Of a DNA stretch of 64,000 nt, positions 31,001 to 63,100 are shown in pieces. Under the pieces are notes generated by a model that saw only the letters and a program-made list of their open reading frames with translations, was not told the origin of the DNA and did no database searches. The translations under genes were made by a program, and so were the position numbers. Position 1 is the first letter of the stretch; each line of letters starts with the position of its first letter. The DNA comes from Anthoceros angustus (lineage: Eukaryota; Plantae; Anthocerotophyta): NCBI GenBank assembly GCA_010909165.1, contig MU008162.1, positions 1,054,001-1,118,000 on the forward strand, written 5' to 3'.

Positions 31001-32775
31001 AGATAGGGATGGAGACTGGCTGACCTGAACTGTAGTTGGCTGTGACAGCGTTCTGACATTCAAGAGGTACAGATCGTTAAAGGGAGTGCCAGAGAAAATC
31101 TCATCCCAGTCAGCTATAGTGGAAATTGAGCAACCAGAATGGTCAAAGCAAATTCTACAAGAAAGTTCTTTAGAAAGCTTAATCACTGACATAAGGTTTT
31201 TGGTCATGGCTGGGACGAAGAGCACACCTGTCAGAATCATGGTGGCTGAATTGGGCAACTCAATGGTAACTGAACCTAAACCCTTGATGGATAAGCCACT
31301 GTCGTCTCCTAATAAGACAAACTGCTGGCTGTCAAAAGAAGGAACAAAGTCATGGAAAGCACGCCTATCGTAGCAAATATGACTGGTGGCCCCCGAGTCC
31401 AAAAACCACATATCATACTGGATCTGAATTGAGGCCAAGCAAACAGCAAGGATAGAAGGTGACTTAGCAGTAGTTGTTGGCTTGGCTGTGGCTAGATTGG
31501 ATTCGGGAGCAGTCCCTTCCTTACGTGGTTCTCCAGCACGCTTCTTCCTACAGTCCTTCTCAAAATGCCCTGGTATCTTGCACCAGTTACAAGTAAACGT
31601 CTTCCTTTGGAGATTAGGCTGCTTGGCTGTTGGGTAGCCACCTCAACCTTGTCCTCCTCGACCTCGTCCACGAAAGCTCCCTCTGCCACGGCCAGAAAAG
31701 AGAACTCTTGAACTGGAATGTTGTTGTGCAGTTTCCTTTCCTTTATGATAACCCTTGGTGCGCTCCTCTGCTAATAAGGCCCCAATCAACTCGTCCAGAG
31801 TAAGGGCTGGAAGGCCTCCTGCCGCTGCAGAGGAGGCACGAGCAACTGTGAACTCATGAAATGACTGTAGCTTTGAGGTAAGGAAGCTAGCAGACTGGTC
31901 CCAGCTTGTTCCTCCGTGAGAGTTGTGCCACAATATGCCAAGGTAGCACGTGCTGTCCTAGAGCGGTTGATATAGGACTCCACAGACTCGTTGTCCTTCA
32001 TCCTCATGCCATAAAAATCCTTGTGTGCAAACACTTGAGATGCATTACTCTTGTCCTTATAGATCTGGCTAAAACTATGCCATACAGCCGCAGAGGTGAC
32101 AGCACCCAAGGTGTGAGGCATCATGTTTCTGTCAAGGGAAGCAATGAGAATCAAACGTGCTCTCCTGTCCTTTCGTTTCCAGTCGAGAACGTCGGCAGCA
32201 TTAGTTGCTGTTGCAGCAGGACATCTCTCACTCCCATCTACCACAGACATCAGCTCGTTTTCCTCAAATATCTGGGTCAATCTCAGTGACCACGTGTTGT
32301 AGTCGTTTCCATTGAAACGATCCTTATCCCTGAACTCGATCTTCAGGGCAGGTTGAGGAAGAGCTGCCGCCATAGTTGATGTGGATGCCCCCGTTGAGGC
32401 TGATGCTGATGAAGATGTTGCGATGGTAGAAGTGGTAGAAGCAGCGACAGTACCTCCAGTTGTGGTAGGTTGTGCCCTGTAAGCTGCTCCAGGAGAGATC
32501 AGAGGTGTCTCCTCTCCAGGATGTTGTCCACGAGAATAGTAAGCAAAACCTTCCCGTGGTCTCCCCTCGCGAGCTCCTTCTGTAGGCTCTCGAGAAAGAC
32601 CGAATTCAAAGTTGAAATCCGGGCGCCTATAGCGTTCTTCAACGCGTGGTGGATCAGTATCTTGATTCAGCTCAACGATGCCGCCAGCATCTAAGTCAAA
32701 CTCATCTTGAAGGGGCTCAGGGCGTCTCTGGTGCATCACATCACAAGTCGTGGGGTGGCTCCTCGCGACGAGCAA
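28083..32775 (-). CDS. Copia Gag-Pol polyprotein (Gag, CCHC knuckle, protease, integrase, RT, RNase H) with a few frameshifts
   Basis: Gag FNGNDYNTW..WKRKDRRA; knuckle CNWCKIPGHFEKDC; protease WFLDSGATSH; GAG-pre LWHCRLGH; integrase HSDLCGP/RSDNGGEY/AERKNRTL; RT QLDVKTAFLNG/YVDD; RNase H DADWAG/SSTEAEY/NVADVLTK. The INT-RT order is copia-type. Confidence 0.97.
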
Positions 32776-33184
32776 CCCGGCAACTCCAAGCGCATCTTGG
32801 GAGTTCTGATGGCTCTGACATCTAAGATGAAGTCATGCGATACCAGTGAGACACTCAACTGAGGTCCTGCAGCTCACGAATTTTGGCGCGAGCAGAAAGG
32901 ATCTCACTTTCCTTTACGCTGTCAGTGCCGCCTCAATCAGTGCGGGGAGCGGTACATACCGTTTTGTATCTGCTAGAGAAGGGTGTTGGACTCACTTTGA
33001 GCAGATTGATCGAGTTGGAAGCCTGGGTGAAGATTGGGATCGATGTGTGATGATTCTCCGGTATGCGAGGCAAAAACCGCTCGATGGAAGGAAAGTTGTC
33101 AACGTCTATGTTGACCTTCCGCCTGGGCGCACGTGAGGCAATCCCTCTCTTAGGCATCGTGGGCGCTCGTGCGGATTGCCTAAA

Positions 33185-41545: not shown

Positions 41546-43925
41546 TGAAAAAGTATTAGATTAGTAATTATATTATCATACCTAAACCACTCTCCTTCAC
41601 ACAATTGTGTGCTCACGCTGTGCTTTGCCTACATCCACCAATGCGATCCTAAACACTTTATAGTATCAGAGTATGGATCGCATCCAAGCGTATGGCAGGG
41701 CATCCATGCCCCGTGTGTGGTCTAAACCTATTTTATCAATTGGATCGTGGACACACCGACGGGGGCCCGTCTCTACTTTTCTGAATGTTTTCAGATCTCT
41801 TGGAGATGTAATCAGGCACCTCACGTGCTGACTCATAGCGCTTACATAATTATGGACCGGTTGTTTAGCAATGCCGACAATGGATTCCTCTGCCTCTCAG
41901 CAAACCCTGGACGGAGAGCAAAAACAAATTTATAGTCAATTGCTCAAGCATTACTGGCAGGAGAGTAGCAGATGGATGCATATGCAATGTTACCGCAAGT
42001 AGGTGCGGTTGCACCATGATGCGCAACAACAATTTTGTTGCTTTTAAACAAGTTCTGCAAAGGGTGCACTTACCATCCCAATTTGGCCCTCATTTTCAGA
42101 CTTGCCAGACTTGTTCTTGTCATCAATTTTGCAACCAAAGCATGCATCGCCCATCGGCTTGTTGTTCTCAACCTGCCCACAATCAACCTGATTGTAGTCC
42201 AGACCCTCTTAGCATCCACACTAGTATCCTTAAAAATTTGCATTTTAAACTATCGCTTCTAGGAGATAGAATCCTTGATAGCCGGGATAGTTATAGGAAG
42301 GACCATCAATGCTTAAACAAACAGATCACAACATTACGCAAAGAAACTTCAACAACTATCCCATTAATGGGAATGACCGTCCCATTCCCATTCACCATGA
42401 ATGGGAATGACTATCCCATTTGGGAGGTGCGCCTAACGGCACTTCTTGATGAGCATGACCTAATGGACATAGCGATTGGGAAGACAGCTAACCCAACCAC
42501 TCTTACTCTTAAAGGCACAAACGAAGAAATTGCAGCTTGGATGAAGGAAGATAAGCGGGCCAAGAGCATTATCCTACCAGCTTTGGATTGTAACATGATC
42601 CAACATACTCAAGGGCAGGCCACCTCTGATGTTGTCTGGAAGGTCTTCAAGGGCATGTTTGCTGCAAAACATTCGATGTCGTTGATAAATGCGACCAGGC
42701 AATTTTATGCTTTACATATGAAGGATAGCAAAATCATTGAGCACTATATATACAAGTTCCGTACCTTGCGAGCTTGATTGTCCTCTTGTGGAATAGATGT
42801 GACAGAGCTATAGGCAGCTGTTGTTCTTTTGACGTCACTGCCACAAAGTTACATAGTATTTGTTAGTTCTCAAAAGCAATTAGACAAGTTGTAAAGGCCA
42901 CAACAGCAAGTAGGCAACCAAGTCTTACCATCTCAAAAATAATTGGAGCTCTGCTTGAGGAGGAGTCGAGCTGGATAGCCACGTGGCCAACAACATGTAC
43001 AGCAAGTCCTTTTCACTACAAGGGGAAGTGGAAGAGGGAGAGGCTCTTATAGGCCAACTTTCCAATCAAGGAGACTGTATACAACACCCCATACTTCTTC
43101 CACTCAAAGGAAGCCTAACTTGGCGGGTACATGTCATTGGTGCCGCATTCTTGAAAATGAATGTCGCAAAAAGTGGGTAGGTGACCCTCGTCGTGAAGCT
43201 CCATCTGGTGTTGAGTCCCATACAATGACTCAAGGATAATTAAGCAATGCCCATAGTGTTAAAGCTCCCACTATCCTTGCTGTGTGCTCATCCCTCACAC
43301 ATGCAAACTTCTTAAATGGACCTCTCGACGAAACTATCTGCATTCATCAGCCGGAGGGGTACATTTCTGATCCAGCCAAGGTATGTAACCTCCTCAAATC
43401 GATCTATAGTTTGAAACAATCAACAAGAATATGGAATGCACGAGCAGATAAGAAACTTTGCAAGATGGGTTTTGTACCTCTTGTAGCTTACAGCAGCGTT
43501 TATATCTTACGAAGGGGCACTCAACTTTGTATCATTGCTTTATATGTTGACGATAATTTCCTATTTTCTAGTGATGATGGCATCCTTGCAAATATTAAGA
43601 AGGAGTTGTCCCGAGAATGGGACATGACTGATGTTGGTCCATTGAAATTTGCACTTGGGATACAAATCTTGTTACAACTCCAATAGCTATCCAACTCTTT
43701 TGGATAGTCCTACTACCATTGCAGAAATATTAGAGATGGCTACTATACCTTATAGGGAGGCTGTAGGAAGCCTTCTCTATCTTGCAAGGTGGACTCGTCC
43801 AGATATTTCACAAATTGGGATTGTGTCACGTTTCTTAGTGAACCCTAGCCACAAGCACTAGATTGCCGTTAAAAGAATCGTACGTTATTTCAAGGGCACC
43901 AACAACTTCTACATTGAATATGTAA
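41546..43925 (+). mobile_element. Second, older copia remnant related to the first (short LTR, PBS, gag, partial RT; protease and integrase deleted)
   Basis: LTR-like TGAAAAAGTA..cacttta at 41546-41660 and PBS-like TAGTATCAGAGT at 41661. Gag MNGNDYPIW..WMKEDKRAK. KAPTILAVC resembles KSPSILAVC of the first copia. RT FLNGPLDE..YVDD..PYREAVGSLLY..TRPDI. Confidence 0.85.
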
Positions 43926-45760: not shown

Positions 45761-48201
45761 ATATAGAGCTAGATTTAGACCACCCAAGAAAACCACTCAA
45801 CAAGTTAGGAAAAGAGTGAATGATTTGATTGACAATGATGTCAACTTAGATGATGTGAATAATCAAGAAGAGATAGCACCCAGAGGATGATAAAAATAAC
45901 ACAATCTCATCCATAAATGAGTTCAAACAAATGTGTTTAATTAGAGGCCTATAAATTGTAGAGAAAAAACCAGAGCAAGGTGTAGTTATTTTCAATGAGA
46001 AACCCTTAGTTACAAAAAAGAGAGGTAGATGTATAATGCATCTACTACAGAAAAATAGAAAAATTGTTGGACATCCTACACCAAATGTATCAATTAAACA
46101 ACTAATGTGTATGCTACATGTATTAAAGATGCAATAATGCGGAGGTAGGGATAGTGATAGTCAAATAGACCAGAGCTATGAATTTGCTATGATAGGGACT
46201 TTAGTAACTCTGGAAGCATAAAAGTTTTATGTTAGTTGTTATACACAAGTAGTCATAGAAAACCAACATCCTAACTTATTAAAAGAGGTTAGATATGAGT
46301 TTTCCTTTTTCCAATGCTTAAAATTTGAAGAATCAAATTTATCAATTATCAAATTAAAAAAAAACTAGATGAGACGGCATTAATGTTATACAACAAAGCT
46401 AATCAATTGATCTAAGACATAGAAATGCACAATGAACTTGAGATTTGTCATAAATATATTGGTAATTTGGATGACAACATTAGATACGGTGTATGCCAAG
46501 AGTTGATACTAAAATATGGGAGAAATTAGGCTTGAGCTAAAGTTTTCTCAATTGCTGAAAAACATGAACAAGCTAAAGCATTGATGAGAGCATTGGATAA
46601 GAAAGCTACAAGAGATAGAGAATATAATACAATTCGTATGGGAGGAGGAATAAACATTCAATACCAATAGAATTCGCAATGGAATTCGCAACAGGTGGAG
46701 ACCGGGGAGGAATTCTACAGATATACTCAAAATTCCAATGAATTGGATAAATTGATTGATTTACATATGAGAGTAATGTATTAAACGATGAACACATGAA
46801 TGAGAACACAATTGTGATAGAAGTTGTGTAAAACCCATTGCATTTTTAAATAATGCTACATGGAATATGCACCTACTAAAGTAGTATTTGATACTAGGGG
46901 AAGATACAAGGTTTCATACTTGCCCGGGGCATGGAATTAGCATGACGTGAAGCTATGCGTGCAGAGCCACTCTTCCTGGGCGCTTGAATTTATCTGCGCA
47001 TCATTTTCGTGAACTTATTCATAAGCCGCTATTGTAGTCGGTGGCGGTCATCCTAAGGGTCTTCATCCTAAGACCATTAGGGGTAAGTAGATACCCCAAT
47101 TCAGCCTGGACTCACATAAGGAGGCTTATACATAGGCCTTGACTCATCCATAAACTCAGACTTATACATAGGCCTCGACTCATCCACAAACTCATTGAAA
47201 GCCAAGAAATCGTAAACCATCCCACTCACTTAGCAATTTGAAACATAACAATGCTCATAAGAATTATCACTCAGCACGGAGTTATCATTTGGCTTTTGGC
47301 AGGCCATTTTATATTATAATCCTGGAGTTATGCAATAACTATGTAGACCGTATAATGTAGAATATATTATATTAATTTTATATATTATATATCCAATATA
47401 GAATCTGTTATAAGATATATTGTCGATCCCACAAACATGTACTAAAGGGACTCTCATGGAGGTTGCAAGGCAGGAGTGGGTGCAGCCTGGATGTGACAAA
47501 TTCCCGCACGGAAGCTAGACAGACTATCCGAATAAAACAGGCAGGTTCATAGAAAATGAACTGAATAATTTTTGGGTTAACAAAACGGGCCAGATGCAGA
47601 GACGAGACGGTGTCCACATACCAATGCACCAGTCCTAACGACGGCCGGGCCCGGTGCTGCGCATCTGGACCGTCTCTCGTCCTCCTCAAAAAGCCTCCGT
47701 CGGCTACACATTGCCCAGCCAAACGGCTATGTACTCTTTGCTTGCCTTCGGGCCTCCCCAATCTTGAACACGCACACGCACCACAACAGTAGGCTTTTTA
47801 GTTCCTACCAGCAGGCCCAGGCCCATGCTCGCAGCAGCCGCCCAACGGCTCCTTACGTGCCCTGTACTTGCCAACCGGTTCTGGCACAAAATTTCAGGCT
47901 GCCTCCAACAGCCAAAAAACTTGCTCCGCCCATCCTTTAAAGCCTCCCTTCCCGCAGGACAGCTCTCCCAACGTCTTCCCCTCCGCTTGTCCAGTCGTTC
48001 CCTGCCTGCTCCGCAATTCTCCAATTGCACAAGTCTTGCCTCGCCCGGCTCCGGCTCCGGCTCTGCCTCGTCCTGCAGGCCCCGGAATGCAGCGGGCAGT
48101 GACATGACCTTGTTTGGGCCTCGCTAGAGCAGGAAGCTTGTTGGGCGGTTGGGAGCAAGCGTGTTGTAGCAGGTTGCAGAAGCAGGAGGAGGAGGAGGAA
48201 G

Positions 48202-50061
48202 ATGGCCTGCTCGCCCATGAAGCCCGGCTCCAGTTCCAGAGAGCATCCCGCCTGCTCCGACTCCTTTCACGTCATCTTTAAAGTGCCGGCTGGGGATTCT
48301 CCGTACGTGAAGGCCAAATATGTGCAGGTGGGCGCCGGTTTGTTGTCCCACTTCTGGTGTGCAGAGTGGTTTTTGGTTGCAAGCTTCCGTTTCTGGGTTG
48401 TGGGTTCTGACAAAGGGCCTGTTTCTGGTGGTGGGTTGGGATGGAGCAGCTGGTGGACAAGGACCCAGAACGAGCAATCGCGCTTTTCTGGGCTGCGCTG
48501 AATGCCGGAGACAGAGTCGACAGTGCGCTCAAGGACATGGCCATTGTGATGAAGCAGCAAAACAGGCCGGAGGAAGCTATCGAAGCTATCAAGTCGCTGC
48601 GGAGTCGGTGTTCAGACCAGGCTCAAGAAGCGTTGGACAATGTCCTGCTCGATCTTTACAAGGTAAGTGACGTGTTCCATGCTAGGACATACCACTCGTC
48701 AACACTTTTAATAAGACTGTTTTCAATGCTTTGCTTCAATACTGATTGTTGCACATTTGGCCATTGTTGCAGAGATGTGGGCGCCTGAGTGATCAGATAT
48801 CCTTACTGAAGCACAAGTTGCACCTTATCAACGAGGGCATGGCCTTCAATGGCAAACGCAGCAAGACTGCCCGCTGCCAGGGAAGAAAGTTCCAAGTCTC
48901 CATAGAGCAAGAAACAACCAGGCTCCTGGTAATCAACACAACGCAAATGCCTTTCTCCTGTGCATGCTTCCCTCTGAACCTTCGCATGCATGCAGTCACG
49001 TAAAGAAAACAAATTAAACAATCTTTCTTCCTTCAGGGCAACTTGGGCTGGGCTTACATGCAACAATCCAACTACGCTGCTGCTGAGGCGGTTTACAGGT
49101 AATACTTGCACTTCCATGTGTGGGTTGATTGCCATGCTCCATGTTCTGCAGAGTCTGCTTCTCCTCTTCTCTGCTGCTTCCTTCGTTACTTTATTAACGA
49201 ACTAATCAGCTAGTTAAACTGAATCAACTAAGCAGCTAGCTTCCTTGCATCCTTGGTGTGAGCAGGAAAGCGCTGAGCATCAAAGGTGACAGCAACAAGG
49301 TGTGCAATCTGGGCATCTGTCTGATGAAGCAGGGGCGCTTGGCGGAAGCTAGAGCAATTTTGCAAACTGTCTCACCCGCATCTGTATCCAGTAGGCCGGG
49401 CTCCGACTCGCACCTGAAATCCTACGAGCGGGCTCAAGCCATGCTGCGGGAACTCGACTTCTACGCAACATCGCACCTTCTTGACTGTGCAGGCCTCTAC
49501 CCTAGTTTCTCCGAGCCCCCACCTCCGCCCAGGCCTCAGGCTCAGGCTCAAACTCAAGTGCAAGCTCTCCTGTCCCGCCTCCGGACGATTCCACAGCAGC
49601 CCGCTGTGATGACGTCTTCGCTGCCGTCTTATCCAGGTCCGTGCCCTTCTTCACACTTGCATTCTACAGGCTTCGTCTATGTGGTCTTGCATTTACACTT
49701 TTTGTTGGGTTTTGTGCTGTTTCCAGGAAACGACGACACCCATGTAGATGCGGGAATGATGTTCGAGGCCTCGGAAAATCCCTGTATGGTAATACGTGAT
49801 CAGGATCAGGATCCCACGGGGCTTCGAGGCTTCCAGTCCGATGGTCCCGTTGGCTTTGGCCTTGGGAAGAGCATGCATTCCTCCCTGGGGAAGGTGGACT
49901 CGCTCGGAATGACAGGTTTCGATCTTCCTGAGAAATTCCCGCTCACCTTCGATCGCACGAACGACTGCCGGCTTGGAGACAATGCGTTTCGGGACCATGT
50001 GGCCGACCGGTCGCTGTTTTCTCAGTTCAGCATGCGGACGAAGCTGAGCCGCATTTGGTGA
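48202..50061 (+). CDS. MS5/POLLENLESS3/SDI1-family TPR protein; exons 48202-48327, 48450-48662, 48773-48928, 49037-49098, 49266-49636, 49727-50061
   Basis: FHVIFKVPAGDSPYVKAKYVQLVDKDPERAIALFWAALNAGDRVDSALKDMAIVMKQQNRPEEAIEAIKS..GNLGWAYMQQ..NKVCNLGICLMKQGR. GT-AG introns keep the frame. Confidence 0.93.
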
Positions 50062-50287
50062 ACGGTTGGAAGGCTTGGACTGACTGCCATGCTGTGGCTG
50101 CTGGGAGTAGTTATTAGGTAGGTAGGTAGGTAGTTAGATGCAGGCTGCAATGTAAACAGTGGAAGATCATCAAAGCCAGTTTGATGCTGAGTAGTCGTGT
50201 AGAACGAATTCTTGGGACAGATGTGAAGGACCCTTTCACTTGTGGTGTGCCGTGATGCTGGGTAGTAGTAGTTAGCATAGCAGGCAG

Positions 50288-50670
50288 GCTTGGCTAGATG
50301 TAAGGTGTGTTACCAGCCTATTCCAGCCCATTCATTTGTAGATAACTGAATCTGCAGAGCAGATTGGATTGGCTGGAGATGTAAAGTGTGTAATCAACCT
50401 GTTCCAGCCCCAGTCAGTTGTAGATAACTGAATCTGCAGAGCAAATTGGAAGGCTTGGCTAGATGTGAAGTGTGTTATCGTCCTATTCCAACCCATTCAA
50501 TTTTAGATCACTCAGATTGTAAGAAAAGATGAATATGTGTCACAAGCGGATGGACGAAAGTGTTAACGTGAGCTCGTGTGGCAAGACATGTAGCAGAGAA
50601 GGCTTGACTAGATGTGAAGTGTGTTACCAGCCTGCTCCAGATCATTCATTTGTAGTTAACTCAGATTGTA
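50288..50670. repeat. ~83-bp degenerate tandem repeat, ~4 copies, downstream of the TPR gene
   Basis: ggcttggctagatgt.aagtgtgttaccagcct.ttccagccc..tca.ttgtagataact recurs at ~50288, 50370, 50452 and 50601. Confidence 0.75.
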
Positions 50671-51813
50671 AGGAAAGAAGAAAGAGTATTCACGTGAGTT
50701 CGTGTGGCAAAGACATGGCACTGAAGGTGGAGGTAGCTGGCATCTGTGTTGAAAGACCACTGGATAGCATACACAAACCGTTTAGGCCCATCGACCACTG
50801 GATAGCATACACAAACCGTTTAGGACCATCGGACACCTACCATACACCCTTCTCCAGGGAGGTTCCAAATCATGGAACAATGCATCCTATTGCCTTGGGA
50901 CAGATTGATTCGTGAGACAGAGGGTGCGTTTCGCAGAATGCTGCAGGTGCAGTCGAACACCAGTTCCTGCGCAACATACCACCAGAATATAGAAGCCCTG
51001 TCCCTCGCTGAGCTTACCAGTACACTGTGAAGAGCAGATATTCCGTCAACGGATATGGAGCTTGTATCCCTAGTCCGGAGGGGTCGTGTTGCAGCAGCCG
51101 AGGAGGAAAAGGCATCAACGGCAGGCACGGGGGTCTGAGCAAGCGCACAACATTCCCGAGGGCATACCGGGAATCTGGACATCCTGCGGCTGTCACATCC
51201 TTAGCAGGCGCAACATGCGAGTGTGTCGGTGTGGCGGAGGGGACGAGTGGAGCTCAGGCTGCGCATGCCGGCTGCCTGGCAACACCGTTATGTAGTATGT
51301 AGGGCACCTGAGAGAGAGAGCGTGGGATGCTATACAACATGAAGCAGACGTGCCAGATCAGACTTGGGATAAGCAGGCCGCGCCAACAGTACAGCATCTC
51401 CCCACCCGAGCCCACCGTATCCTCTGGGCCTCTAAATATCCCGAAGTCCAAGACAGAGCATGTGATCCTGGCAAGTGGAAACCACAGACGGGGCTTCGCC
51501 AACGATTTCGCTGATCTTGCCCAGTGACTTTCCGCTTTCTGCATTTGCCTTGGACATTTGGGATTCTCAGGAGGCCTCGGGCCCGGGTTGGCCCGGCCTC
51601 CCATTCTGGTATTGGATCTCTGGGGACCAGAGCTGCGGAGATGAGTACAGCAGGCCCGCTGTCAGATGAAAAAGCTCTGCAGGCTGCGGGATCCTGTGCT
51701 TGAAGCTTAACCTGCTCCTGCTCCTGCCCCTGCTCCTCCTCCTGCTGCTGCATTTGCACCTGCGGCTGCACAGCTGCGCCTGTGCCTTCTTCCTTGGTTC
51801 GTTGCATCAGCTC

Positions 51814-53470
51814 ATGGCGCTCAGGCTGCAGAGATGTCTGGGTGAGGTGTCCTGTCACCTGCACTGGGCCGCTCAGGCTCATTCTCAGGGCTCCCCTGCT
51901 TCCCGGAGCAGCCTGCAGGTGCGGTGCGTGTCGAATTCGGTGCCCCGGGAGAGCCCGCATTTTGGCCGGCGGAATGCGCATGCGCAGGATGTGGCGCTGT
52001 CGGCTACCGAGGTGAGGATTCCATTCCATGCTCGGGACTGGGTGGCAGGCATGAGAGTGATTTAGTGCACCAGCTTGTGGTTCTGTTTGTGGGCGATGAA
52101 GAATGGGATTGGAATGCTTGGGTGCAGGGGAGGACAGCCAATGCCGCCTCCACCACCTGGATGCCGGAGCTGGGCGCGGATTGGGGCTTCCTAGGCCCGC
52201 GTGATGACGTGGACATGGCGAGGGCGGTTTTGTCAGCGGCAACGGAGGAGACGTCCTCTGCGGGCTACCAGGCTTTGAGAGACGGGCTGGAAACCCTGGC
52301 TATGCTGCAAGAAGTGCAGCTTCCGTGGGACATAGCTGCGGATTTGGATGCCTTGCCCGGGAACGAAGGTGTGTGATAATGGGCAGGGAATTTGCTTCTG
52401 CTCGTGAACTGCATTGGACGTTTTAGTCATGTCCCGGATACCTGGTGTAATGGCTGTGCAGAGGATGAGGAATGGAGTTTTCAGGCCGAGGATTTTCAGG
52501 TAAGAAGGAAAACTGTGTGGAAGAGTGCCAGAGATGTAGAGTGTTTTTGTGGCAACTTCCGTGCTCCCTCGGGTATTTCAGGTCTGTCTTTGATGCCGCT
52601 GCCGCTGCTGCCATGTCCAGTGGGCAGATCGACGAGACCCCTTGACGACTTTCAGCTCCTTGGAAGGAGCATCCAGCACCAGCTATGACCGGATCTGGGA
52701 GCTCCGAAAAAGGCACGGTTTGTGGTACGTACTTCACCTCTCTCGGCCTTCCTTTCCCCGGTAAACCTGAACTAAATTCATCTCCCGCTGTGCTCCAGGT
52801 TCCCTGCAGACCAGGCCAGCCATCCCCAACCAGCTTGCTCACTCAGCCATCCTGCTGACCTGCAGTCCAGATCTGAGGTGGGAAACACAGAGGTTAGCAT
52901 GTCGTTTTGGTTTGAGATCCTCCCAGCCAGCTCGCCAGCCTTCCCAGCACCTTCTGAGAGCACAGTATGTTGTCTCCCTTCCTCCTGCAGATGCAGACTG
53001 GCGGAAACGCAGCAGCTTCAGCCACCAAGCCCAGTGATGTTTGGGTGTTGGACTCTTCTTTCCTGGTGGCTCTGCTAGACAGCGATGATCTCTACTCCCC
53101 GCTCTGTTTGCGGGCTGTGGAGCTCATGGGGGAGTCCAGGAAGGTGCTGACACAGGAGTGCGTCACAGAAGCGACTCAGCTCATCCGGAGCAAGATCAGA
53201 GGAATCAGAGGAGCCCAACTGGAGCTCTTTCTGTACAAATGCATCGAGACAGGAGTTTTCGAGGTTGTTTGTCCTGGGTCGTGGAGGGAGTGGTCTATGT
53301 TCGCTCGCCTTCTCAGGTACTGGAGACAGACCAGGCTGGGCAATGCAGCTTCCTCCGTTTTGGCCTTAGCGGAGCGGCTGTCTACTCCAAATGTGGCCAC
53401 CTTGGACAGAAGGACCTTCGATTTAGTAGCCACCAAGCACACCGCTACACTCAATCTTCTGCCTAACTAG
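51814..53470 (+). CDS. Predicted plastid-targeted protein with a C-terminal VapC-type PIN domain (384 aa); exons 51814-52011, 52128-52368, 52462-52499, 52621-52724, 52799-52892, 52991-53470
   Basis: Five GT-AG introns of 74-121 nt splice to an uninterrupted 1155-nt frame. The N-terminus MALRLQR..SPASRSSLQVRC/VSNS is transit-peptide-like. The last exon WVLDSSFLVALLD..CVTEATQLI..SVLALAERL...VATLDRRTF..LNLLP follows the bacterial VapC pattern. The PIN exon is more certain than the upstream exon model. Confidence 0.75.
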
Positions 53471-54320
53471 CATGTGCGAGAATCCATGCCTGTATACAGC
53501 TTCCTACACCCTGTACACATAGCGACTCTGTACATCAAATTCATCATTTTTTTCAAGTAGTACCTAATTGTGCACGCAAGCAAACAATAGTTTAGCGAGC
53601 GAACTTTCATAATGAATAGGTGTGCCGTTCTTATGACCTGGGAGCTTGGATTCCATACATGAAGATCACCATGTGCACTATCTAAACGAGGAGGAAGGAC
53701 GGAGAAGGTAACGCTATGTCGAGAACTATCTGGCTGAGACAGTGAATAGCATACACGAGAGACTCTGACTCCAAAATTCGACGCACTGTTCTACTTGAAA
53801 GATGGTGGTATCCAAGATCGCTAGCCTACACAGACCACCACAAGAATCAGTTGCTCTCCAGCATGCTTTCGTTGCTGCTAAGAGTGCGAGGGTTATGTGC
53901 ACGAAGAGAAAGCCGCTTGTTGCCAGGGGTGGTACAGCAAGGTCTGTTAGAGAAGGACATGGACAATCAAACTGCCAGTGGTAGGAAGAAATGTCTATTT
54001 GAGATGGGAGAGCGACATGGAACAAACAAATTTCCCAGGGTTGGTAGGTAGCAGGTCTCTTTGAGAGGGATATGAACAATGAAACCACCGAATCGAGCTG
54101 CAGCACAACATACCTGGCACACGCATCATCAGCTGCTACTCCCGCATCTCATTTCTGGCAAGCAAAGTAATCGCATAGAAATAATTACTTTTTTCTCTTA
54201 AACAGAGCTTAGTTCAATATGTTTTTTCTTATTTGTCTATCATATTTACACGACTGTAGGAAAAAATCAAAATATGCACACGGGAGCATGAGTTAGAAGG
54301 CTGAAGTTCCGCAGGAGCAT

Positions 54321-56716
54321 TCAGTCCAACTTCCCATGCTTCTCATCCCAGATTTTAGGAAGACTGTTACCACGAAGAGCGGAATGGTAAACACGTTTCT
54401 CAGGTAGGCCGATATCTACCATCGTTAGGGACCCCTGCCAGACGGCGATGACCACCGTTTTCAGCGCGAGGACTACTGGGCACCGAATTTAGAGATCTGA
54501 ATGAAACATAGCCGAAATCAAAACTTAAACTCACCTCTGCAGCCATCAACCTGCGAACATTTTGCGCGTACAATTTTGGGTCTTCACACTCCTTTGTTGA
54601 TGGACGATACAGTGGTAGTCTGGTAACTTCCAAATTGTTGACAAACTGGCAGAGCAGTAAACATACATGGCGGACCTGTAAAACCCAAAATGACCCACAC
54701 GAGTTGAGCTCATCCGCGACAACTGGCTTTTTCTTCCAAAACCGACGGGATCATGATGGCCCTTACCCCCGATATAGTGTCCCAAGCAGGACTGAACCTG
54801 ACGTAAGGATATCTCAAAATCACTGGCAGTACAGGAGTCCCTGCCAGAAATGCACCAGTCTTGAAAGGCAGCACATAATCGCCATTGGTGGTTGTGCCCT
54901 CTGCAAAGAAACAGATACATAAGATGAAAAATAAGTTCCCGCTTTAACAATGCCTGTTAACCATGGTTGCTGACAAGAATATGCCTAAATACTATGCATC
55001 ACAATTTCAGGTCATCACCTGGAAAGAGCAGCAGGGATGGTGCTTCTTCATGCTGAGTTGCTGCCTGCAATCGTTGGACAACTACGCCTATAAAAGAACC
55101 ACGAAAGTAATAAGAGGATAGAGTAAACCCACAGTCTTGCAAATGCTTGAACGGACATAGACACAATCTGAATAGAGAACTTTGACTGTGGGATTAACCT
55201 GAAACTCCCTTGAAATCAGTAGATTTTGATTCTCGTTGCACATAAACGCATCCTAGGCACTTGCTGGGACATCAGGAAGAAAAATCCAAACCATTCACAT
55301 AAGCTTGTCAGTTACGAGCTCCAGTTTTGCAAAAGCCAAATTTTTGGGTAGCAATTGAGCTGCAAGTAGTTGACACTAAAACAACCCACCTGATCAAACC
55401 CACAAGAGGTATTCGGGCCACTGATCTCTTCAAATTTGCACCAAACAACATGACCATGAAAAAGGACACGTAGCAACGACGGTAAGAAAATCAGCTGACT
55501 GCAATTTGCCTCTTAGTCACTCTAGCAGAAAGGATAATTCCGCATAAAAAAACTAGCAGTAAGCTGCACACCTTCGCCACGAAACTTGGAAACGACGCGG
55601 ACATGTGATAGAGTATGTCCAAATACGATATGTGGTTGGAAACAATAGCACCTGCTCGAACCGAAGCATTGTCGTCCTCCTCATTGTTCTGCCGCAGAAA
55701 AACAAGGAAATGATGAGGACATATCAAGCTCCCTCGTTCAGAATTCGCTGGCCAAAAGAGAGCATTACGCTTCAGCTACAGGTCCCACGGACTCCACGGC
55801 AGTGAATACCTCGCCTGGTTCTCCCAAGCCAAGCTGAAGCCGTTCCATCAGCTCAGTGTCCCTCTCCGTCACACTGATGTAGTAGAAGCCCAGAATGAAC
55901 AAAATGAGCCGTGCACAGAAACGGCCCGAGTTGAAAATGATGGAGCGGCGAAGACCAGTCAGATGTGCATAGCCATCTAGTCCGTCCTGCAAGGCAACAT
56001 TAGGTTAGAACCCGCTCCGCATCCGGAACACGAAGGAAGCTCTGGTTTGGGGGCCATAGGAGCTGGTGTGCAGGAATTCACATGACAGCTCGCTTGCTCC
56101 CAAGTCCCAAACCAAGAGCTTGAGCTAGAACCTGCTGCGAGGGTGTCCGAAACAGTGTGCAGACCCGGCAAATGACGTAGAAGAGCACAAGTACGAACAG
56201 CAGCGACACCACGCGAATGGGAACAATAACAAGGACCGCCAGAAAGAGCTTGGCAGCCTCCCAGATCGTCACCGGCCCCGCACCCCAAGTACCGTAAGCA
56301 TCCTTCCTCACATATGCAGCATACTTCACTTCCATCTCCTCCAAGCTGTCGGATTCCGCCAGAGTGCCGTTTGCAGCGTGATGCAGCTGCTGATCCAGGC
56401 CGTTGGAGGAGGAGGAAATGACATGGCTGGGAACGTGTCCCTTCATCAAAAGCGGGGCCTTGTCCTCCTTCCTCCTTGACGAATCCAGCTCCTCCGCCTC
56501 TGCCTCTGCCTCTTCCTCTGCATCCGCCTGCTCCTCCACCTCCACCTCCCGTTCCCTTTCCGCAGCAACAGGTGCAAGAGGATGAGAATTGTGGTAGCCC
56601 GCAGGTGTTGAATCCGAGAATCCGTTCATCTCCTTTCTCACCCTCAGCAGCGGCACGTCGTCCATCTCTGCCGCCAGCCCCAGCTGCTCCGACGCCATCT
56701 CCAACTCCAGCCCCAT
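54321..56716 (-). CDS. LPEAT1: Lysophospholipid acyltransferase LPEAT1-like (PlsC domain), multi-exon
   Basis: KYAAYVRKDAYG; IVSNHISYLDILYHMSASFPSFVAK (HxxxxD); LFPEGTTTNG; FKTGAFLAGTPVLPVILRYPYVRFSPAWD; LPLYRPS..E.EDPKLYA.NVR.LMA. Stop at 54321-54323. Confidence 0.92.
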
Positions 56717-57132
56717 GGCAATCAATCCCTTCTACACGTCCGCACCTCCATGGCCAAATCTTTCCTCCACGCTTTCCCTTTCCGATCAATTGGCCTCCAG
56801 TTCAAAGCCGAGAAACGTGCTTCAAGACGTCAACACGCGGATCGTTACGTACCGTATTTATTTCACATTCACCACCGGGTGCATCTCACAACTTGGATTC
56901 TCTGTTCATGGTGCGGGAACCAGGCCCAGCTACTTAAATTTAGGAGATAGGTATATAGGTTACTTCAGTTTGGTTATAGTCATGGTACCGTAGTTTTATT
57001 ATTAGGGCTTTGGGTTTTCCACATCAAAAGGCCAAGCCCTGAGATAGCGAGGTCTTTTCTTCCGGCGGCCATCAGCTCTGACCCTGAGCGGGTGAGGAGG
57101 TCCGTTGCTCGGTACCTGCAGCGGCTTCAGCT
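56717..57132. promoter_or_regulatory. Short divergent promoter region shared by LPEAT1 and RPL9
   Basis: The two ATGs are head-to-head and ~416 bp apart. A telo-box-like ttagggcttt lies at ~57002 and a pyrimidine tract tcttttcttcc at ~57053, ahead of the ribosomal protein gene. Confidence 0.5.
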
Positions 57133-57998
57133 ATGAAGACCATCAAGGCGTCGCAGACTATGGACATCCCAGCCGGCGTGAAGCTGGAGATTAGGGCTAA
57201 GAAGGTGCGGGACGTTTGTTTGTGAGGGGTGGAAGGAGTGGTGTGTTGAATTTGAGCTCGAGCGATGACTGTGTCGTGGTTGTGGCGCTCCAGGTCCGTG
57301 TGACAGGGCCGCGGGGCGTTTTGCTGCGGGACTTCAAGCATCTTAATCTGGACTTCCAGATCATTGAGAACGGCACCAAGCTGCAGGTGGATGCCTGGTT
57401 CGGGAACCGGAAGACGACGGCTGCTATCCGCACCGCCATCAGTCACGTAAACAACCTTTTCATCGGAGTTACCAAGGGCTACCGCTACAGAATGCGGTTT
57501 GTGTATGCTCATTTCCCCATCAACGCTAGCATCTCCTCGGAGAAGGACAACATCGAGATCAGGAACTTTTTGGGGGAGAAGAAGGTGAGGATTTGTGACC
57601 TAAATCTGTGGTTCCTGGTCCAGGTTGAGGGTTTTCTGGTGGCTGATGGTCCTCTGTTAATGACGTGGATGTGTGGCAGGTCCGCAAGGTGGACATGCTT
57701 GGCGGTGTCACGGTTACAAGGTCTGAGAAGACCAAGGACGAGCTGATTCTTGAGGGCAACGACATTGAGCTCGTCTCGAGATCAGCAGCCCTAATCAACC
57801 AGGTCCGAGTCTTCTCCTTTTCTGTACTCGTTACTGGCCGTCGTAGTTTGTAACCAATCTTAGCTTGCGGGACGTAGTAACCGTGGGTCTGGTGGCTCCC
57901 TGCAGATCTGTCACGTGAAGAAGAAAGACATCCGGAAATTTTTAGACGGGATTTATGTCAGCGAGAAGGGAACCATAGCTGACGAAGAGAACTCATAG
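57133..57998 (+). CDS. RPL9: 60S ribosomal protein L9 (uL6), 192 aa; exons 57133-57204, 57294-57584, 57680-57802, 57906-57998
   Basis: [76 protein letters not shown]. Confidence 0.97.
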
Positions 57999-60157
57999 GC
58001 AGATTTAATGTTGAGGCTTTTTGGGACGTGGTGCTGGACTTTGAATGCTGTGCCCGCATGGTGTATGGTATTCAGTTTTGTTCTCCGTCTTCTGTTTTGG
58101 CAGAAGACACCAATCATATGCTTTGCGTAGATAAGAGGATCCATTGGCTCGGTATGCTTCTGATTGACATCTGCGACCAAGCGAATCGAAGAATGTTCTG
58201 ATCCGTCTCCTTGACATTCATCGTCCCCTCGTTCGTATTGGGCAACAAATGCTAGCCCCTCTCTCTGATCTAATTGGACCTTGTCGGAGAAGGAAGTCCA
58301 TCAACTTATTTACTGCGTACAAATCAGGTATTTCGGGCATTTCAGATCCCATTCACTCCATATCTTTGTGTTCTGGACGACGCCTGAACGATTTTTTGGA
58401 GATGATGGTTATTGCCTTCGATTGGAAGTAGTAGGTGACAGTGATCCCAACTTCGAAAAAGTACCGGTATGAACACCATTCCAGTGTTTGGAATTCTGGC
58501 TTCCGTTTCTTGCATTCCTATGTACAGTCGAGTACTTATCTTTCCTCTATGTGCACACAATTTGCCCTGCACTATGAGTTTCTGAACATGTACAAGAAAG
58601 CTTTGGAGTCGTTCCAAATGAACACGCTGCCCTGTTGTACTTGAAAAACATCTTTACATCTTGCAACATTGAACGGTATGATTGAATTGAAAAACATCTT
58701 TACATCTTGCAACATTGAACGGTATGATTGAATTGCACAGCATGAAGAATACAACATACTGGGTGCTGTGGCGAGTTGAAGTAAGAAAAAGAAGTGGACG
58801 GCTTTCTTAGAAACCTACAAGTGCACATTACGACAGGCAGAAAGTCAGAGCTAGACAGGCAGAAAGTCAGAGCTAGAATTCTAACGTTCCCATTTGTCAA
58901 TGGCTATCCGGAATCTGTGAAAGCTCTAGCTTTCACAATCTCTACTTTTACTAAAAGGGAAGGATGAATACATTTGCAAAGCATGCAAGTTTGAGGGCCC
59001 ATCAACAAGGGAAGTCTGGCTCACTAGAAAAGTGACTTTAGGAAATGATACACGCCCGGCCCTGCCATTATCACAAATGCCTGGATGCAAGCGAAGTTTT
59101 GGAAAGTCAAGTTTAAAAAACTTACAACTTCACGATTGGAAGCACTTTGAGTAGATACAATGACGGATAAAACTAGAAATTGCGAGTAGATACAATTACA
59201 GACAGAACTAGAAATTGCGGGTCGTTTTACGCTAGCTTATGACGGTCAAAGAAAGAAAAAAGAAAGATAATGCTACTTCTTCATTCAGACCAATACTTTG
59301 TAGTGCAAGTTTCCAAAGTCATAACTCCTGTTTGTGTGGAAGTGAAAGATGAAGTTATTTGAAAATTATGGTGAATCACTTTATGCTATGCCGTCTTTTT
59401 TGTCAACTTTCAAATGTTTACGAGCTTATGATATTCCCTGAAATCTTTTCCGTGCTAACGAGGTGTGTGACTTGTTGGTAATGAGCAGACATGAAGCTTC
59501 ACGATGTTGGATAGCAAATCAACCTTTGGCTTATGTTCCACTCCAGATCAAATGTTTTGGAAAGAAGAAGCTTTAGCGTATGAGAAGCTTCTTTTGGTTT
59601 TGAAAGGACAGCAGCCCAACGGACTTCACATTTCTAGTTGCTGTTAGAAAGGAGGAGTAGAGAGCTTAAATAATATGTGGACACTTGCTCTACACTCGTT
59701 TCTCTTCTCTTGTTACTTTCTTTTGGAGAGATGACTTCCTGGAAGTCTTCCAAGCTTGCTTGTATGCATTGTTGCAATTTAGAACACCTCAAATATTATG
59801 AAGTCTGAAAGTCACGACTTGGGGAAGTTAATTGGCAGGGGCTACAACAAAATTGCAATCTGTTGTGAAGTTTGCTAAACTCACGTTAACTTCGTCAGAC
59901 GTTCGATGTCTTCAGCACCAAGCCATGAAGACTACAAATGCCTTATTCTTGCTAGGCCGCACATACGAAGCGTGTGTCTTCTCCTCAGACGAAGGGCCGA
60001 TTGTGTAGCTGAAAAAAGCCCTTGTAAGGGCGCATTTTTCTTCCCTTTATAAAAAGATTTGCTAGGTACAAGAAGATCTAGGATCTAGAACTATGAATTG
60101 TTAATGAAAAAAATTAGCTCAGTCTCTACCCAGTTCGTTAAATTTACAACCGCCTCT

Positions 60158-63100
60158 TTAGGCAGGACAGTTCAGCCTCTTGCTTCCAAGCTCTACAGCC
60201 TCTTTCAGTGACTGGCCGAGAGCTCGTGCGAGTGGTGGAGGCACGGCATTTCCGATTTGCCTGTGCTTGAAGTTGATGTTGCCACAGAACTTGTATCTGT
60301 CCGGAAAGCCCTGCACAAGGTAACGGTTTCAACTGATAAGCAGTAGGCACAGTGGAGTCCACGACAGCGGAAAGAGACAAGGCCATCTGCGGTATCCAGT
60401 GGTTAACCACGTGGAGTACTATACCTGGGAGCGTGCGCATTCCCGCACTGTGACGATACGATCTTGCTCCGGGTGGAAGCACATGCCGACTTTGCCCATA
60501 GGCTGAGGGTCTGTGACGGACGTCGGGAAATTCCCTTCCCAATCAAGACGTCCAAACAGGCCCTTCCATTGATTATGTCGGGCGGCAGTGTTAGGAAGAC
60601 ACCACGGGATCAGATCCACCACGGCTCCGGTTGACAGCTTCACCTGTACAGTTCCAACGAAATTCCTCGTTATGAAAATTTCTGGACGTGATTGATGTTC
60701 AAGGCCTCCCAAGTTCGTCAGTCATCAACTCTTCATTGCGACAAGCGGCGGCCTTACCTTTTCCTCCGGAAGGTCACGCCAATCCGCTCCTGGCCGCTTG
60801 GGAATGCGCTTGCACCTAATGTGATTTAGCTCATTCATTTCTTTGCAGATGTGATCCTGGAGTACGTTCTGGTCTCCTCGTATTTCTTTCTGGAACCATG
60901 ACTCCGGATTGTTTCCATACTGCACACCGAGAAGGGTGTTAGATGCAGGACAACTTCAGGAGCACGTATGACCAAGGCCAGATAGCAATCTAGTAGGCTA
61001 CTAAAATTGGCTTGCACCCCGACCCAAGCAGGTGCGATCCCTTACCCCCATTTCCTCAAGTTTGGCACCATTGCTCACAGCAGGAAGGTCACCGACTGTG
61101 TCCCGAACTGTTATTGATCTCAATGGAGCACCCAGAGCAGCGTCCTCTACAGCTGCATACTGCAGACCTCCTGGCAGTGAGACCTTCAACTGTGAGCTGG
61201 CGAACACATGCAATGGCTCCGGCCATTCCGGCAGCCGTTCCTCAGGGGAGGCTGCCCAGATAAAAGCTCGTTTTCGCGACTGAGGAACGCCATAGTTGCC
61301 CGCCTCAAGAACACCAAACCTTACCTGCAAACAACCATTGGGCTCTTAGCATCCAATGAGCTTAACTGCCGAAGTACAGGGGCATAACATTGCCACACGA
61401 GTTGCCGAATCTGAGTCACAATACCTGATAGCCCATCTCAAGAAGAGTAGCCAAAGTCAGACGAAAAGTTTGTCCCTTATTGAAAGACACAAAATTCCGC
61501 ACGTTTTCCAGCAGGAAGTACCGTGGTCGATAATAGTCAGCATACCCAAGAAACGCAAGTATCATCTCACATTGGATTTTGCTCCAAGCTCTGTTACTGA
61601 ACCTGTTCATTCCGGAGAACCCCTGGACAGAGCCGTGGAAGCATGTGAAACATCAGCGAACACCCTCAACTCTAAATCGCAATTTCACATCCCAAGGACG
61701 TGTAATGAGAAATACCTGGCAAGGTGGTCCACCGTTGATGAAGTCAACTTCGCCAGGCAGTGGTAACTTCTTTATAACGTCACTAGTGAGCTGCTTGGAC
61801 AATTCTGCAGCTTCAGGTGTGGTATTGCAGTCATCGAGGTCCCCACCCTTCTCCATAATCGATCTGCCAAAGAGCAACACATAAGATGTGGTGATGAAGT
61901 TGGTGCAGGAAGTGTGCTGGAATGCTTATGCGAATGTACAAGTCAGCACTGTGCGTACCGCAATATCACGTTGCAGTTCGCACAAAACACTTCCGCATCA
62001 GCATGGTTCAGCTTAAATGCATCAGCCGCCAGCTGATCATATTCAATGGCCCACTTGGTGCGGCTCACTCCTGCAAAACATGACAAGCAAGTTCCAGGTA
62101 AGAAAAGAGAGCCACAGAGAAACAACTCAACTCTGGCGCTGTAACAAATCGAGTGGAGTAAGCCCATACCAGATTGCTGCAGCCCTTCAGAGAGACCACC
62201 GCAGCCAGCGAAAATATCCAGGGTGGCAAGGCGCTGATCAGAGCCAGACTCGACTGTATCTTCGCATACTTCCACCGCCTTTCCTTTGCCTTTAACATTT
62301 GTGGGAGTCTCTGGAGAGTGTGCTCTTGAAGAACTGAATTTGACGTGCGCTGGCAACTGTAGACAAACAAGGGCTCGTGAACCTTCAGGGAGGGAAACAT
62401 TTTGACCACAATACACCATGAAAACGGAGGATAGTGATGGTTGTCATATACCTGTTTAACCGTGCCAGCTTTTGGGTCATAGATACAACTGCAGAAGAAA
62501 ACATGTCTCAGGGCAGATTTCGCAGATGTGAACTGCACTTCCGAGCGCCTACGGACGTCACATTTCCCCTTTAAGCGGAGTATGTCGACCTTCGTCACTT
62601 CCTCGGTGTAGTATACCTGCCATAGCACCACCAAAGGTTGACAAATACGATACCGATGGACTGCGGCTCTACCAGCGCCAATCACGACCCACAGTCGTTA
62701 GCTCAAGGAGATCACAGATCGAGAAAAGATAGGCACCTCATAAAGATCAGCTTTGTACGCCTTTTGAGGGCCAACATCCTCAGGCCTATAGAATCTGCGG
62801 ACCGTTAAACTTGAGGGCTTGGTCTCACTCTGGAAGCCAACAAGCTGGCAGATAGCAAAAGCCCTGAGGCCTTTGTTTCTGCTAGCTTTCACCCTTTCGG
62901 CACACGTTGCTTCTGGCAGCGCAGACTTAAATGAATCAGGATCGAGGTAGATGAAATCATCTTTCAGATACTCAACTCCAGCAAGTGCGAACCCGTCTTT
63001 GCCCGGGAGAACCTGTATGCGCTTTGCTTCCTTTTCCCTGCTTGTTTCTTCACACGCTTGACACCTACCGTCACCGCGTGCCAACTTATCAGTTGGGAGA

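Follow-up and report, generated by a model that had tools for sequence, protein, structure and literature searches.

VapC26 and VapC20 of Mycobacterium tuberculosis are the two known toxins that cut the sarcin-ricin loop (SRL), and the VapC26 active site consists of Asp4, Glu42, Asp97, and Asp116, of which Asp4 and Asp97 bind Mg2+ (PMC5737657). Chloroflexota, Actinomycetota, and Cyanobacteriota have uncharacterized PIN toxins of the VapC26 type, single-domain proteins of 135–155 residues encoded behind a small antitoxin-like gene, and about 98% of these toxins have all four acidic residues. Here we describe a six-exon gene on the plus strand at positions 51814–53470 of a 64,000-nt stretch of Anthoceros angustus DNA (contig MU008162.1, positions 1,054,001 to 1,118,000; the whole stretch analyzed, hereafter the window) that encodes a PIN domain whose nearest characterized relatives by sequence and structure are VapC26 and VapC20. 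The window protein has in common with these toxins (PDB 5X3T for VapC26, 5WZ4/5WZF for VapC20) the predicted compact PIN fold, the equivalents of Asp4, Glu42, and Asp116, and the TLDRR motif, whereas it lacks the equivalents of Asp97 and His119, is about 21% identical in sequence, and carries a 220-residue, intron-encoded N-terminal extension as the product of a nuclear plant gene with no vapB beside it. Its best sequence matches are the bacterial VapC26-like toxins, at 27–38% identity over the whole domain.

Among eukaryotic proteins, Utp23, SMG5, DIS3L, and DUF1308/C7orf25 resemble the window protein in having PIN domains that have lost catalytic acidic residues, and Utp23 is described as a nuclease that has lost its activity and binds RNA (PMC5499597). 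The likeness is one of function, as these proteins belong to other PIN lineages; in our structure comparison, the eukaryotic PINs listed score Z 8–9. A second point of likeness is offered by PRORP, a protein with a targeting peptide and a PIN-like domain that works on RNA in organelles (PMC5499597). The PIN classification in the same paper also assigns some eukaryotic sequences to VapC clusters without explanation, 11 of them to COG2402, for instance. PRORP differs from the window protein in belonging to the PRORP/NYN variant group and in being an active enzyme. It also carries PPR repeats. Transfers of bacterial genes such as those known from bryophytes are common: a survey of 49 streptophytes counted 1,809 families (PMC12513842), and a single hornwort has 14 (PMC7027989). 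No description of a plant VapC was found in the literature searched, subscription papers and bioRxiv supplements lying outside its scope. No VapC, PIN, or toxin–antitoxin entry appears in the parts covered of the text and supplements of PMC12513842 and PMC7027989 and of the PMC8075897 supplement; the horizontal gene transfer (HGT) tables of PMC12513842 fall outside these parts, and the family may be listed unremarked in an HGT table. Common as bacteria-to-plant transfers are, the combination of a toxin–antitoxin toxin without its antitoxin, five introns, and purifying selection was not found in that literature.

Our tentative explanation, which we rate somewhat below an even chance, is that the gene is a horizontally acquired, disarmed VapC whose product would serve as a non-cutting, RNA-binding pseudo-nuclease in the plastid (or the mitochondrion), where large-subunit rRNA is a plausible target.

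A spliced plant gene with a VapC26-like PIN domain

The first in-frame ATG lies at 51814, with an in-frame stop upstream at 51667, and the stop codon at 53468–53470 closes a product of 379 residues without internal stops. A preliminary description of the locus, made from its sequence, had drawn five short canonical introns between the N-terminal region and the PIN exon. All five are GT–AG and 74–121 nt long (52012–52127, 52369–52461, 52500–52620, 52725–52798, and 52878–52990), and a single 1838-nt contig from run X1, with 0 deviating letters relative to the window in its five listed pieces, skips every one of them and so joins exons 1–5 to the PIN exon. In runs X2, X11, and X22, which represent three other organisms whose exons are ~93–96% alike, the first four joints are identical to those of X1, and the intron 5 donor lies at 52893, adding five residues for a protein of 384. 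The spliced joins that the preliminary description had asked transcripts to confirm are present in 4/4 runs compared, with the RNA status of these runs being a tool’s guess and X1 possibly the window’s own sample; among the 23 runs listed, none is both on record as RNA and found to hold the gene. The locus is a genuine spliced nuclear plant gene. The 38-nt exon 3 is deduced from 37 letters between two joints, the piece between them not itself having been placed. An intron 3 acceptor at 52581 was rejected because it gives an internal stop, and the contig-supported acceptor at 52620 was used. The intron 5 donor in X1 lies 15 nt further upstream (52878) than in the three relatives, where the base before this GT is A; in the window it is G, which may explain the shift.

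Downstream of exon 1, exon 2 (52128–52368, aa 67–146) encodes an acidic, Ala-rich segment with no family match, and the likewise acidic exon 3 (52462–52499) is bounded by joints 2 and 3. Exon 4 (52621–52724) encodes the first part (DRRD...SY..W.LRK.H.L) of a ~50-residue motif that recurs in the homolog P0001, and exon 5 (52799–52877; to 52892 in the relatives) encodes its second part (F.ADQ.SHP.P) followed by a linker. A helix is predicted in this motif with low confidence (pLDDT 53–63). Exon 6 (52991–53470, aa 221–379) consists of a short linker and the PIN domain at about 53039–53467.

The PIN domain scores below the Pfam PIN (PF01850) cut-off (18.9 versus 23.6 bits, E 0.0024) and has no NCBIfam VapC match; the bacterial homologs P0002 and P0003 also fall below the Pfam PIN and NCBIfam VapC cut-offs. 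Its AlphaFold model (pLDDT 88) clearly points to a compact, VapC-type PIN fold of ~130–140 residues. The best Foldseek match of this model is VapC26 (5x3t; E 4.6e-8, TM 0.73/0.84), and structure comparison gives Z 18.4 for VapC26 (rmsd 1.9 Å over 132 residues) and Z 16.4 for VapC20, against Z 7.9–8.9 for SMG6, Rrp44, Nob1, and a 90S pre-ribosome chain. The sole PDB sequence match is again VapC26 (E 1.2e-4), which also heads the family profile search (E 3e-36; VapC20 at E 6.5e-8). VapC26 ranked first in all five sequence and structure comparisons, VapC20 is listed in four of them and takes second or third place there, and the best ESM Atlas clusters are 100% bacterial PIN (score 0.95). No Pfam match to Fcf1, PIN_4, PIN_6, DUF1308, or PRORP was obtained at E ≤ 1. 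The domain is therefore unlike SMG5/6, NOB1, UTP24, and RRP44, as first stated. The accompanying claim of a complete VapC-pattern domain in exon 6 stands for its length and for all the motifs then quoted, and fails for the active site, which is incomplete.

Searching exon 6 against 5.8 billion proteins returned eight matches. One, P0001 (Logan, 252 residues), is 50% identical; the other seven are bacterial-type PINs of 135–154 residues at 30–34% identity. With a HMMER profile built from the plant-type sequences alone, 50 of 1.84 billion representatives matched at E ≤ 0.001, and P0001 alone at E ≤ 1e-10. Since P0001 also has the ~50-residue motif of exons 4–5 (55% identity), it is a true member of the family, and we refer to it and the window protein as the two plant-type sequences. 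The only other match to that motif lies in P0025, a STAND/TPR protein rich in repeats, and was regarded as fortuitous. A known, widespread plant PIN family, whose appearance at the top of the results would have told against the proposed acquisition, was not among the best matches in these protein collections, which hold few spliced plant proteins. No longer homolog (280–2000 residues) occurred among 2510 candidates, which is weak evidence, and neither the PIN exon searched against metagenome and viral contigs nor P0001 searched against unnamed ESM Atlas clusters added anything further.

One cluster from JGI and Logan (P0024, P0071, P0072, and P0073) combines a VapC26-like PIN domain that keeps all four acidic residues with a ~80-residue N-terminal extension rich in Ser, Arg, His, and Gln, and its variable ends resemble splice forms. 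It is 30% identical to the window protein and has LEL.L...IE....EVVC in common with it. Judged from these sequences, the cluster may be a second eukaryotic family; grouping the window protein with P0024 gave p 0.42 in an approximately unbiased (AU) test, which neither demonstrates nor rejects a shared ancestry.

Active site, selection, and the absence of an antitoxin

Three of the four VapC26 active-site residues are kept: Asp241 (53051–53053, equivalent to Asp4), Glu280 (53168–53170, Glu42), and Asp359 (53405–53407, Asp116; a silent change in the relatives). The fourth, the metal-binding Asp97, is replaced by Ala340 (GCT, 53348–53350), with no change listed here in X2, X11, or X22 and with Val in P0001. 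This column holds Asp in 120/122 bacterial homologs and in 151/153 of an enlarged set, the two exceptions being Gly; these sets are biased, since 70 rows of Anaerolineae type were reached through P0002, and contain two loci, L097 and L100, whose genomes (G348 and G177) are marked as unpublished. The position of His119, the hydrogen-bond partner of Asp97, is Thr in the window, Ala in the relatives, and Asn in P0001. In Haemophilus influenzae VapC1, D99G emerged from a loss-of-toxicity screen and the D99N protein is non-toxic and still binds its antitoxin (PMC4229260), and Rv2019 D98K is likewise non-toxic (PMC5175181). The idea of an intact RNase is unsupported because the Asp97 equivalent is lost in both plant-type sequences; catalysis has probably disappeared or become much weaker.

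Several features weigh against a disarmed enzyme or speak for reading the protein as an active but attenuated RNase, in which the three acidic residues would hold a metal ion together with Glu276 and, under stress, cleave rRNA or tRNA of the plastid, with the acidic exons 2–3 or the exon 4–5 helix as a built-in antitoxin. The TLD motif persists along with three of the four acidic residues, and both plant-type sequences retain these three (Asp241, Glu280, and Asp359). The bacterial-type homologs L103 and P0005 also lack the Asp97 equivalent (Gly). Glu276 (53156–53158, at the position of VapC26 Tyr38) is acidic in both plant-type sequences and in 1/153 other homologs, and this plant-only residue could rebuild a site; VapC1, which has alternative active sites, provides a precedent for a variant one (PMC4229260). 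The exon 4–5 motif is conserved with P0001 and predicted to be helical. On the other side, the Asp97 equivalent is required in VapC1 and Rv2019 and binds Mg2+ in VapC26, and VapC26 Tyr38 is a dimer contact and not a metal ligand (PMC5737657). Exons 2–5 also show no likeness to antitoxins, as described next, and we consider an attenuated RNase unlikely.

No VapB partner was found near the gene, in agreement with the preliminary description: the sequence upstream is occupied by the gene’s own exons and a TPR gene. Exons 2–5 and the N-terminal part of P0001 had no match among the open reading frames (ORFs) of 124 bacterial loci (best E 0.14), and against 128 ORFs at the VapB position the best score was 4.6 bits, reached equally in 14/20 shuffles; both ORF sets include the two unpublished-genome loci. 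A fused antitoxin, considered as a candidate, accordingly has no sequence support in these two sets. The named plasmid relatives from Streptomyces, Tsukamurella, and cyanobacteria are, by contrast with the window gene and its missing vapB, small two-gene modules, 10/10 of those fetched lying behind a short upstream gene that in several cases is annotated as antitoxin-type. The gene product should not be classed as a VapC toxin, because a full active site and a linked antitoxin were both looked for and neither was found.

The PIN exon is under purifying selection. The 21 listed differences that the three relatives have in common relative to the window comprise 15 silent and 6 replacement changes (pN/pS 0.13, binomial p 8e-6), a test that amounts to one comparison as the three relatives carry the same 21 changes, and that covers 21/27 (X11), 21/28 (X2), and 25/31 (X22) of the differences, those near piece ends being omitted. 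Row 53072, from a second X22 contig, was excluded from the count. In X11, exons 1–5 show 14 silent and 8 replacement changes among the best-supported 40 of 111 rows, and exon 1 shows 5 silent and 1 replacement among the rows listed. The second X22 contig (record 4, 1530 nt) matches the start of the PIN domain at 53042–53106 with 9 differences in 65 nt before passing into related but different sequence, and a weak joint also ties it to exon 3; the organism of run X22 thus appears to have a paralog.

The retention of the domain in a plant gene, as originally claimed, is thus borne out by selection on its exon. A contaminant, a chimeric assembly, or a decaying pseudogene might be suspected from the sub-threshold Pfam score and the lost catalytic residue. 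Set against this are the five GT–AG introns spliced in four organisms, the open frame, the pN/pS of 0.13, and the paralog-like X22 contig, by which such a reading is refuted in the main; we regard it as extremely improbable.

Origin of the domain

The domain very probably came from a bacterium. All five trees unite the window protein with P0001, and a very long stem of 1.5–2.2 changes per site leads to this pair. A careful 40-row tree places P0022 as sister to this pair (98/83) on a stem of about 1.8 changes per site; in a quick 73-row tree P0022 is not the sister. The plant-type pair is never sister to cyanobacterial homologs in any of the five trees, for which seven cyanobacterial sequences, all plasmid-borne, were sampled. 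AU tests reject none of the groupings examined: three cyanobacteria (p 0.34 and 0.10), three Anaerolineae-type rows (0.27), L092 with P0013 (0.16), and L090 with P0026 (0.14).

The preliminary description had named nesting within cyanobacterial or actinobacterial VapC as support for a transfer; the trees single out no donor, and neither grouping is rejected by the AU test. A cyanobacterial donor is accordingly neither favored nor rejected. The endosymbiotic origin that it had also entertained is not borne out by the score ranking, in which four cyanobacterial rows stand at 61, 66, 68, and 73 of 73, even though such an origin survives the AU test (p 0.10–0.34). Because of these low cyanobacterial scores and the apparently narrow range of the family, horizontal transfer is favored over an endosymbiotic source.

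The composition of the homolog sets bears on these trees. The Anaerolineae set was thinned to every fourth of 70 rows in one tree and every eighth in another, the long branches L115 and P0014 were removed from one tree, and 21 further rows were removed for the 73-row set. Three trees include rows from unpublished genomes; the 40-row set used for the careful tree and the AU tests is free of them. Searches centered on G001, G002, and G003 drew the same genomes, so that a single phylum was covered, probably Chloroflexota, and cyanobacteria were not; in one of these searches, 65/401 genomes had a match. The labels Pleurocapsa (L075) and Bacteroidetes (L023) are probably misleading, these rows having drawn the same phylum genome set as an Anaerolineae genome.

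Targeting, RNA binding, and proposed role

Exon 1 (51814–52011, aa 1–66) encodes a candidate targeting peptide at residues 1–38, composed of 16% Ser and Thr, 11% Arg and Lys (11% Arg), and 3% Asp and Glu, and followed by an acidic region. An acid-poor, basic N-terminus ahead of an acidic region is the arrangement of organellar presequences. No hydrophobic signal peptide was seen on direct inspection of the sequence. The QVRC/V site that the preliminary description had placed at the end of the N-terminal stretch is present (aa 35–39). Its argument for a plastid transit peptide is not supported, because [VI]-x-[AC] motifs occur in 49% of shuffles of the N-terminus and because the predicted amphipathic helix of residues 1–11, with Arg4 and Arg7, suits mitochondria equally. 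To judge from the sequence, import into an organelle appears fairly likely, with the plastid ahead of the mitochondrion.

A mitochondrial factor, otherwise acting as in our proposal, would account for the helix of residues 1–11 (hydrophobic moment 0.59) and for the Arg at −2 from the proposed cut. The Ser-rich, uncharged residues 13–34 and the V-R-C sequence, however, fit plastid peptides, and [VI]R[AC] is found in 6.5% of shuffles; we regard a mitochondrial factor as quite unlikely.

Several basic residues, R66, R73, K83, R99, and R106 (exon-6 numbering), are common to both plant-type sequences and rare in bacteria, which fits RNA binding. RNA binding may well have been retained, and the ribosome, suggested as a partner by analogy, would be about half as probable as RNA binding itself. 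An SRL specificity like that of VapC26 need not have survived, as the RNA-binding surface has drifted: Tyr45, Pro37, and the Arg and Pro of the C-terminal motif, all conserved elsewhere, have been replaced, and the relatives carry Lys in place of Arg360. This drift is among the points that tell against the disarmed, organellar RNA-binding protein that we propose. To it are added the compositional nature of the targeting evidence, with a cleavage motif at chance level; the lack of a matching N-terminus in P0001, which may be truncated; and the donor, for which a cyanobacterial, an actinobacterial, and an Anaerolineae-type sister are each unrejected (AU p 0.10–0.34).

The same observations lend themselves to a disarmed PIN domain that works outside organelles or without RNA, as a cytosolic or nuclear scaffold, a dimerization module, or a decoy for VapB or VapC of associated microbes. 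The weakness of the targeting evidence and the changed RNA-contact and dimer-contact residues are compatible with such a role, and dead VapC1 D99N still binds antitoxin (PMC4229260). The presequence-like composition of the first 38 residues, the absence of a hydrophobic signal peptide, and the new basic residues common to both plant-type sequences count against it, and it appears on the unlikely side, though far from negligible.

Under the explanation that we propose, a vapC gene would have entered the nuclear genome without its antitoxin, and loss of the catalytic Asp would have made the transferred gene tolerable. Intron-bearing N-terminal exons would then have been gained, and the protein may have been turned to new use in RNA binding or regulation, by analogy with Utp23 and its degenerate PIN domain. 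It would be imported into an organelle, more likely the plastid than the mitochondrion, and would bind structured RNA there, most plausibly large-subunit rRNA. A bolder and rather unlikely extension makes the protein a reversible brake on plastid translation: the domain would dock on the 23S SRL and block elongation factors without cutting, gated by the exon 4–5 helix. The P0072 cluster, with its intact active site and presequence-like N-terminus, would then represent an earlier or parallel stage of domestication. Loss of the catalytic Asp hints at a way in which cells can survive such a transfer, with disarming first and repurposing after. Should the protein bind the ribosomes of an organelle, it would represent a novel type of translation regulator in plastids or mitochondria; if it is just a lineage-specific pseudo-enzyme, it makes a modest addition to bryophyte-type transfers.

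The X1 contig extends over a 5′ leader (51473–51813, plus strand) and a 3′ untranslated region (53471–53827, plus strand). The leader contains two short upstream ORFs on the same strand, with ATGs at 51641 (20 residues) and 51666 (14 residues), and a CCTGCT repeat at 51711–51751. The GC fraction is near 0.49 in the window and 0.49–0.55 in the introns of the gene, values that would agree with a hornwort, one hornwort genome having a GC content of 49.6% (PMC7027989). No second copy of the gene was found in the window, and no Rfam family in 47000–60000. The neighbors are eukaryotic, intron-bearing genes: a TPR protein gene, presumably SDI1/MS5-like (about 48200–50061, plus strand), an acyltransferase gene (about 54300–56800, minus strand), a ribosomal protein L6/RPL9 gene (about 57200–57750, plus strand), and a BAH plus C5-methylase gene, which we take to be MET1-like (about 61900–62700, minus strand). 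A Ty1/copia retrotransposon with gag, integrase, and RT (28083–32832, minus strand) and a second gag fragment (41869–42777, plus strand) lie 10–20 kb from the PIN gene, and tandem arrays occupy 50286–50512 (82-nt unit, 2.7 copies) and 50755–50831 (38-nt unit, 2 copies) between the TPR and PIN genes.

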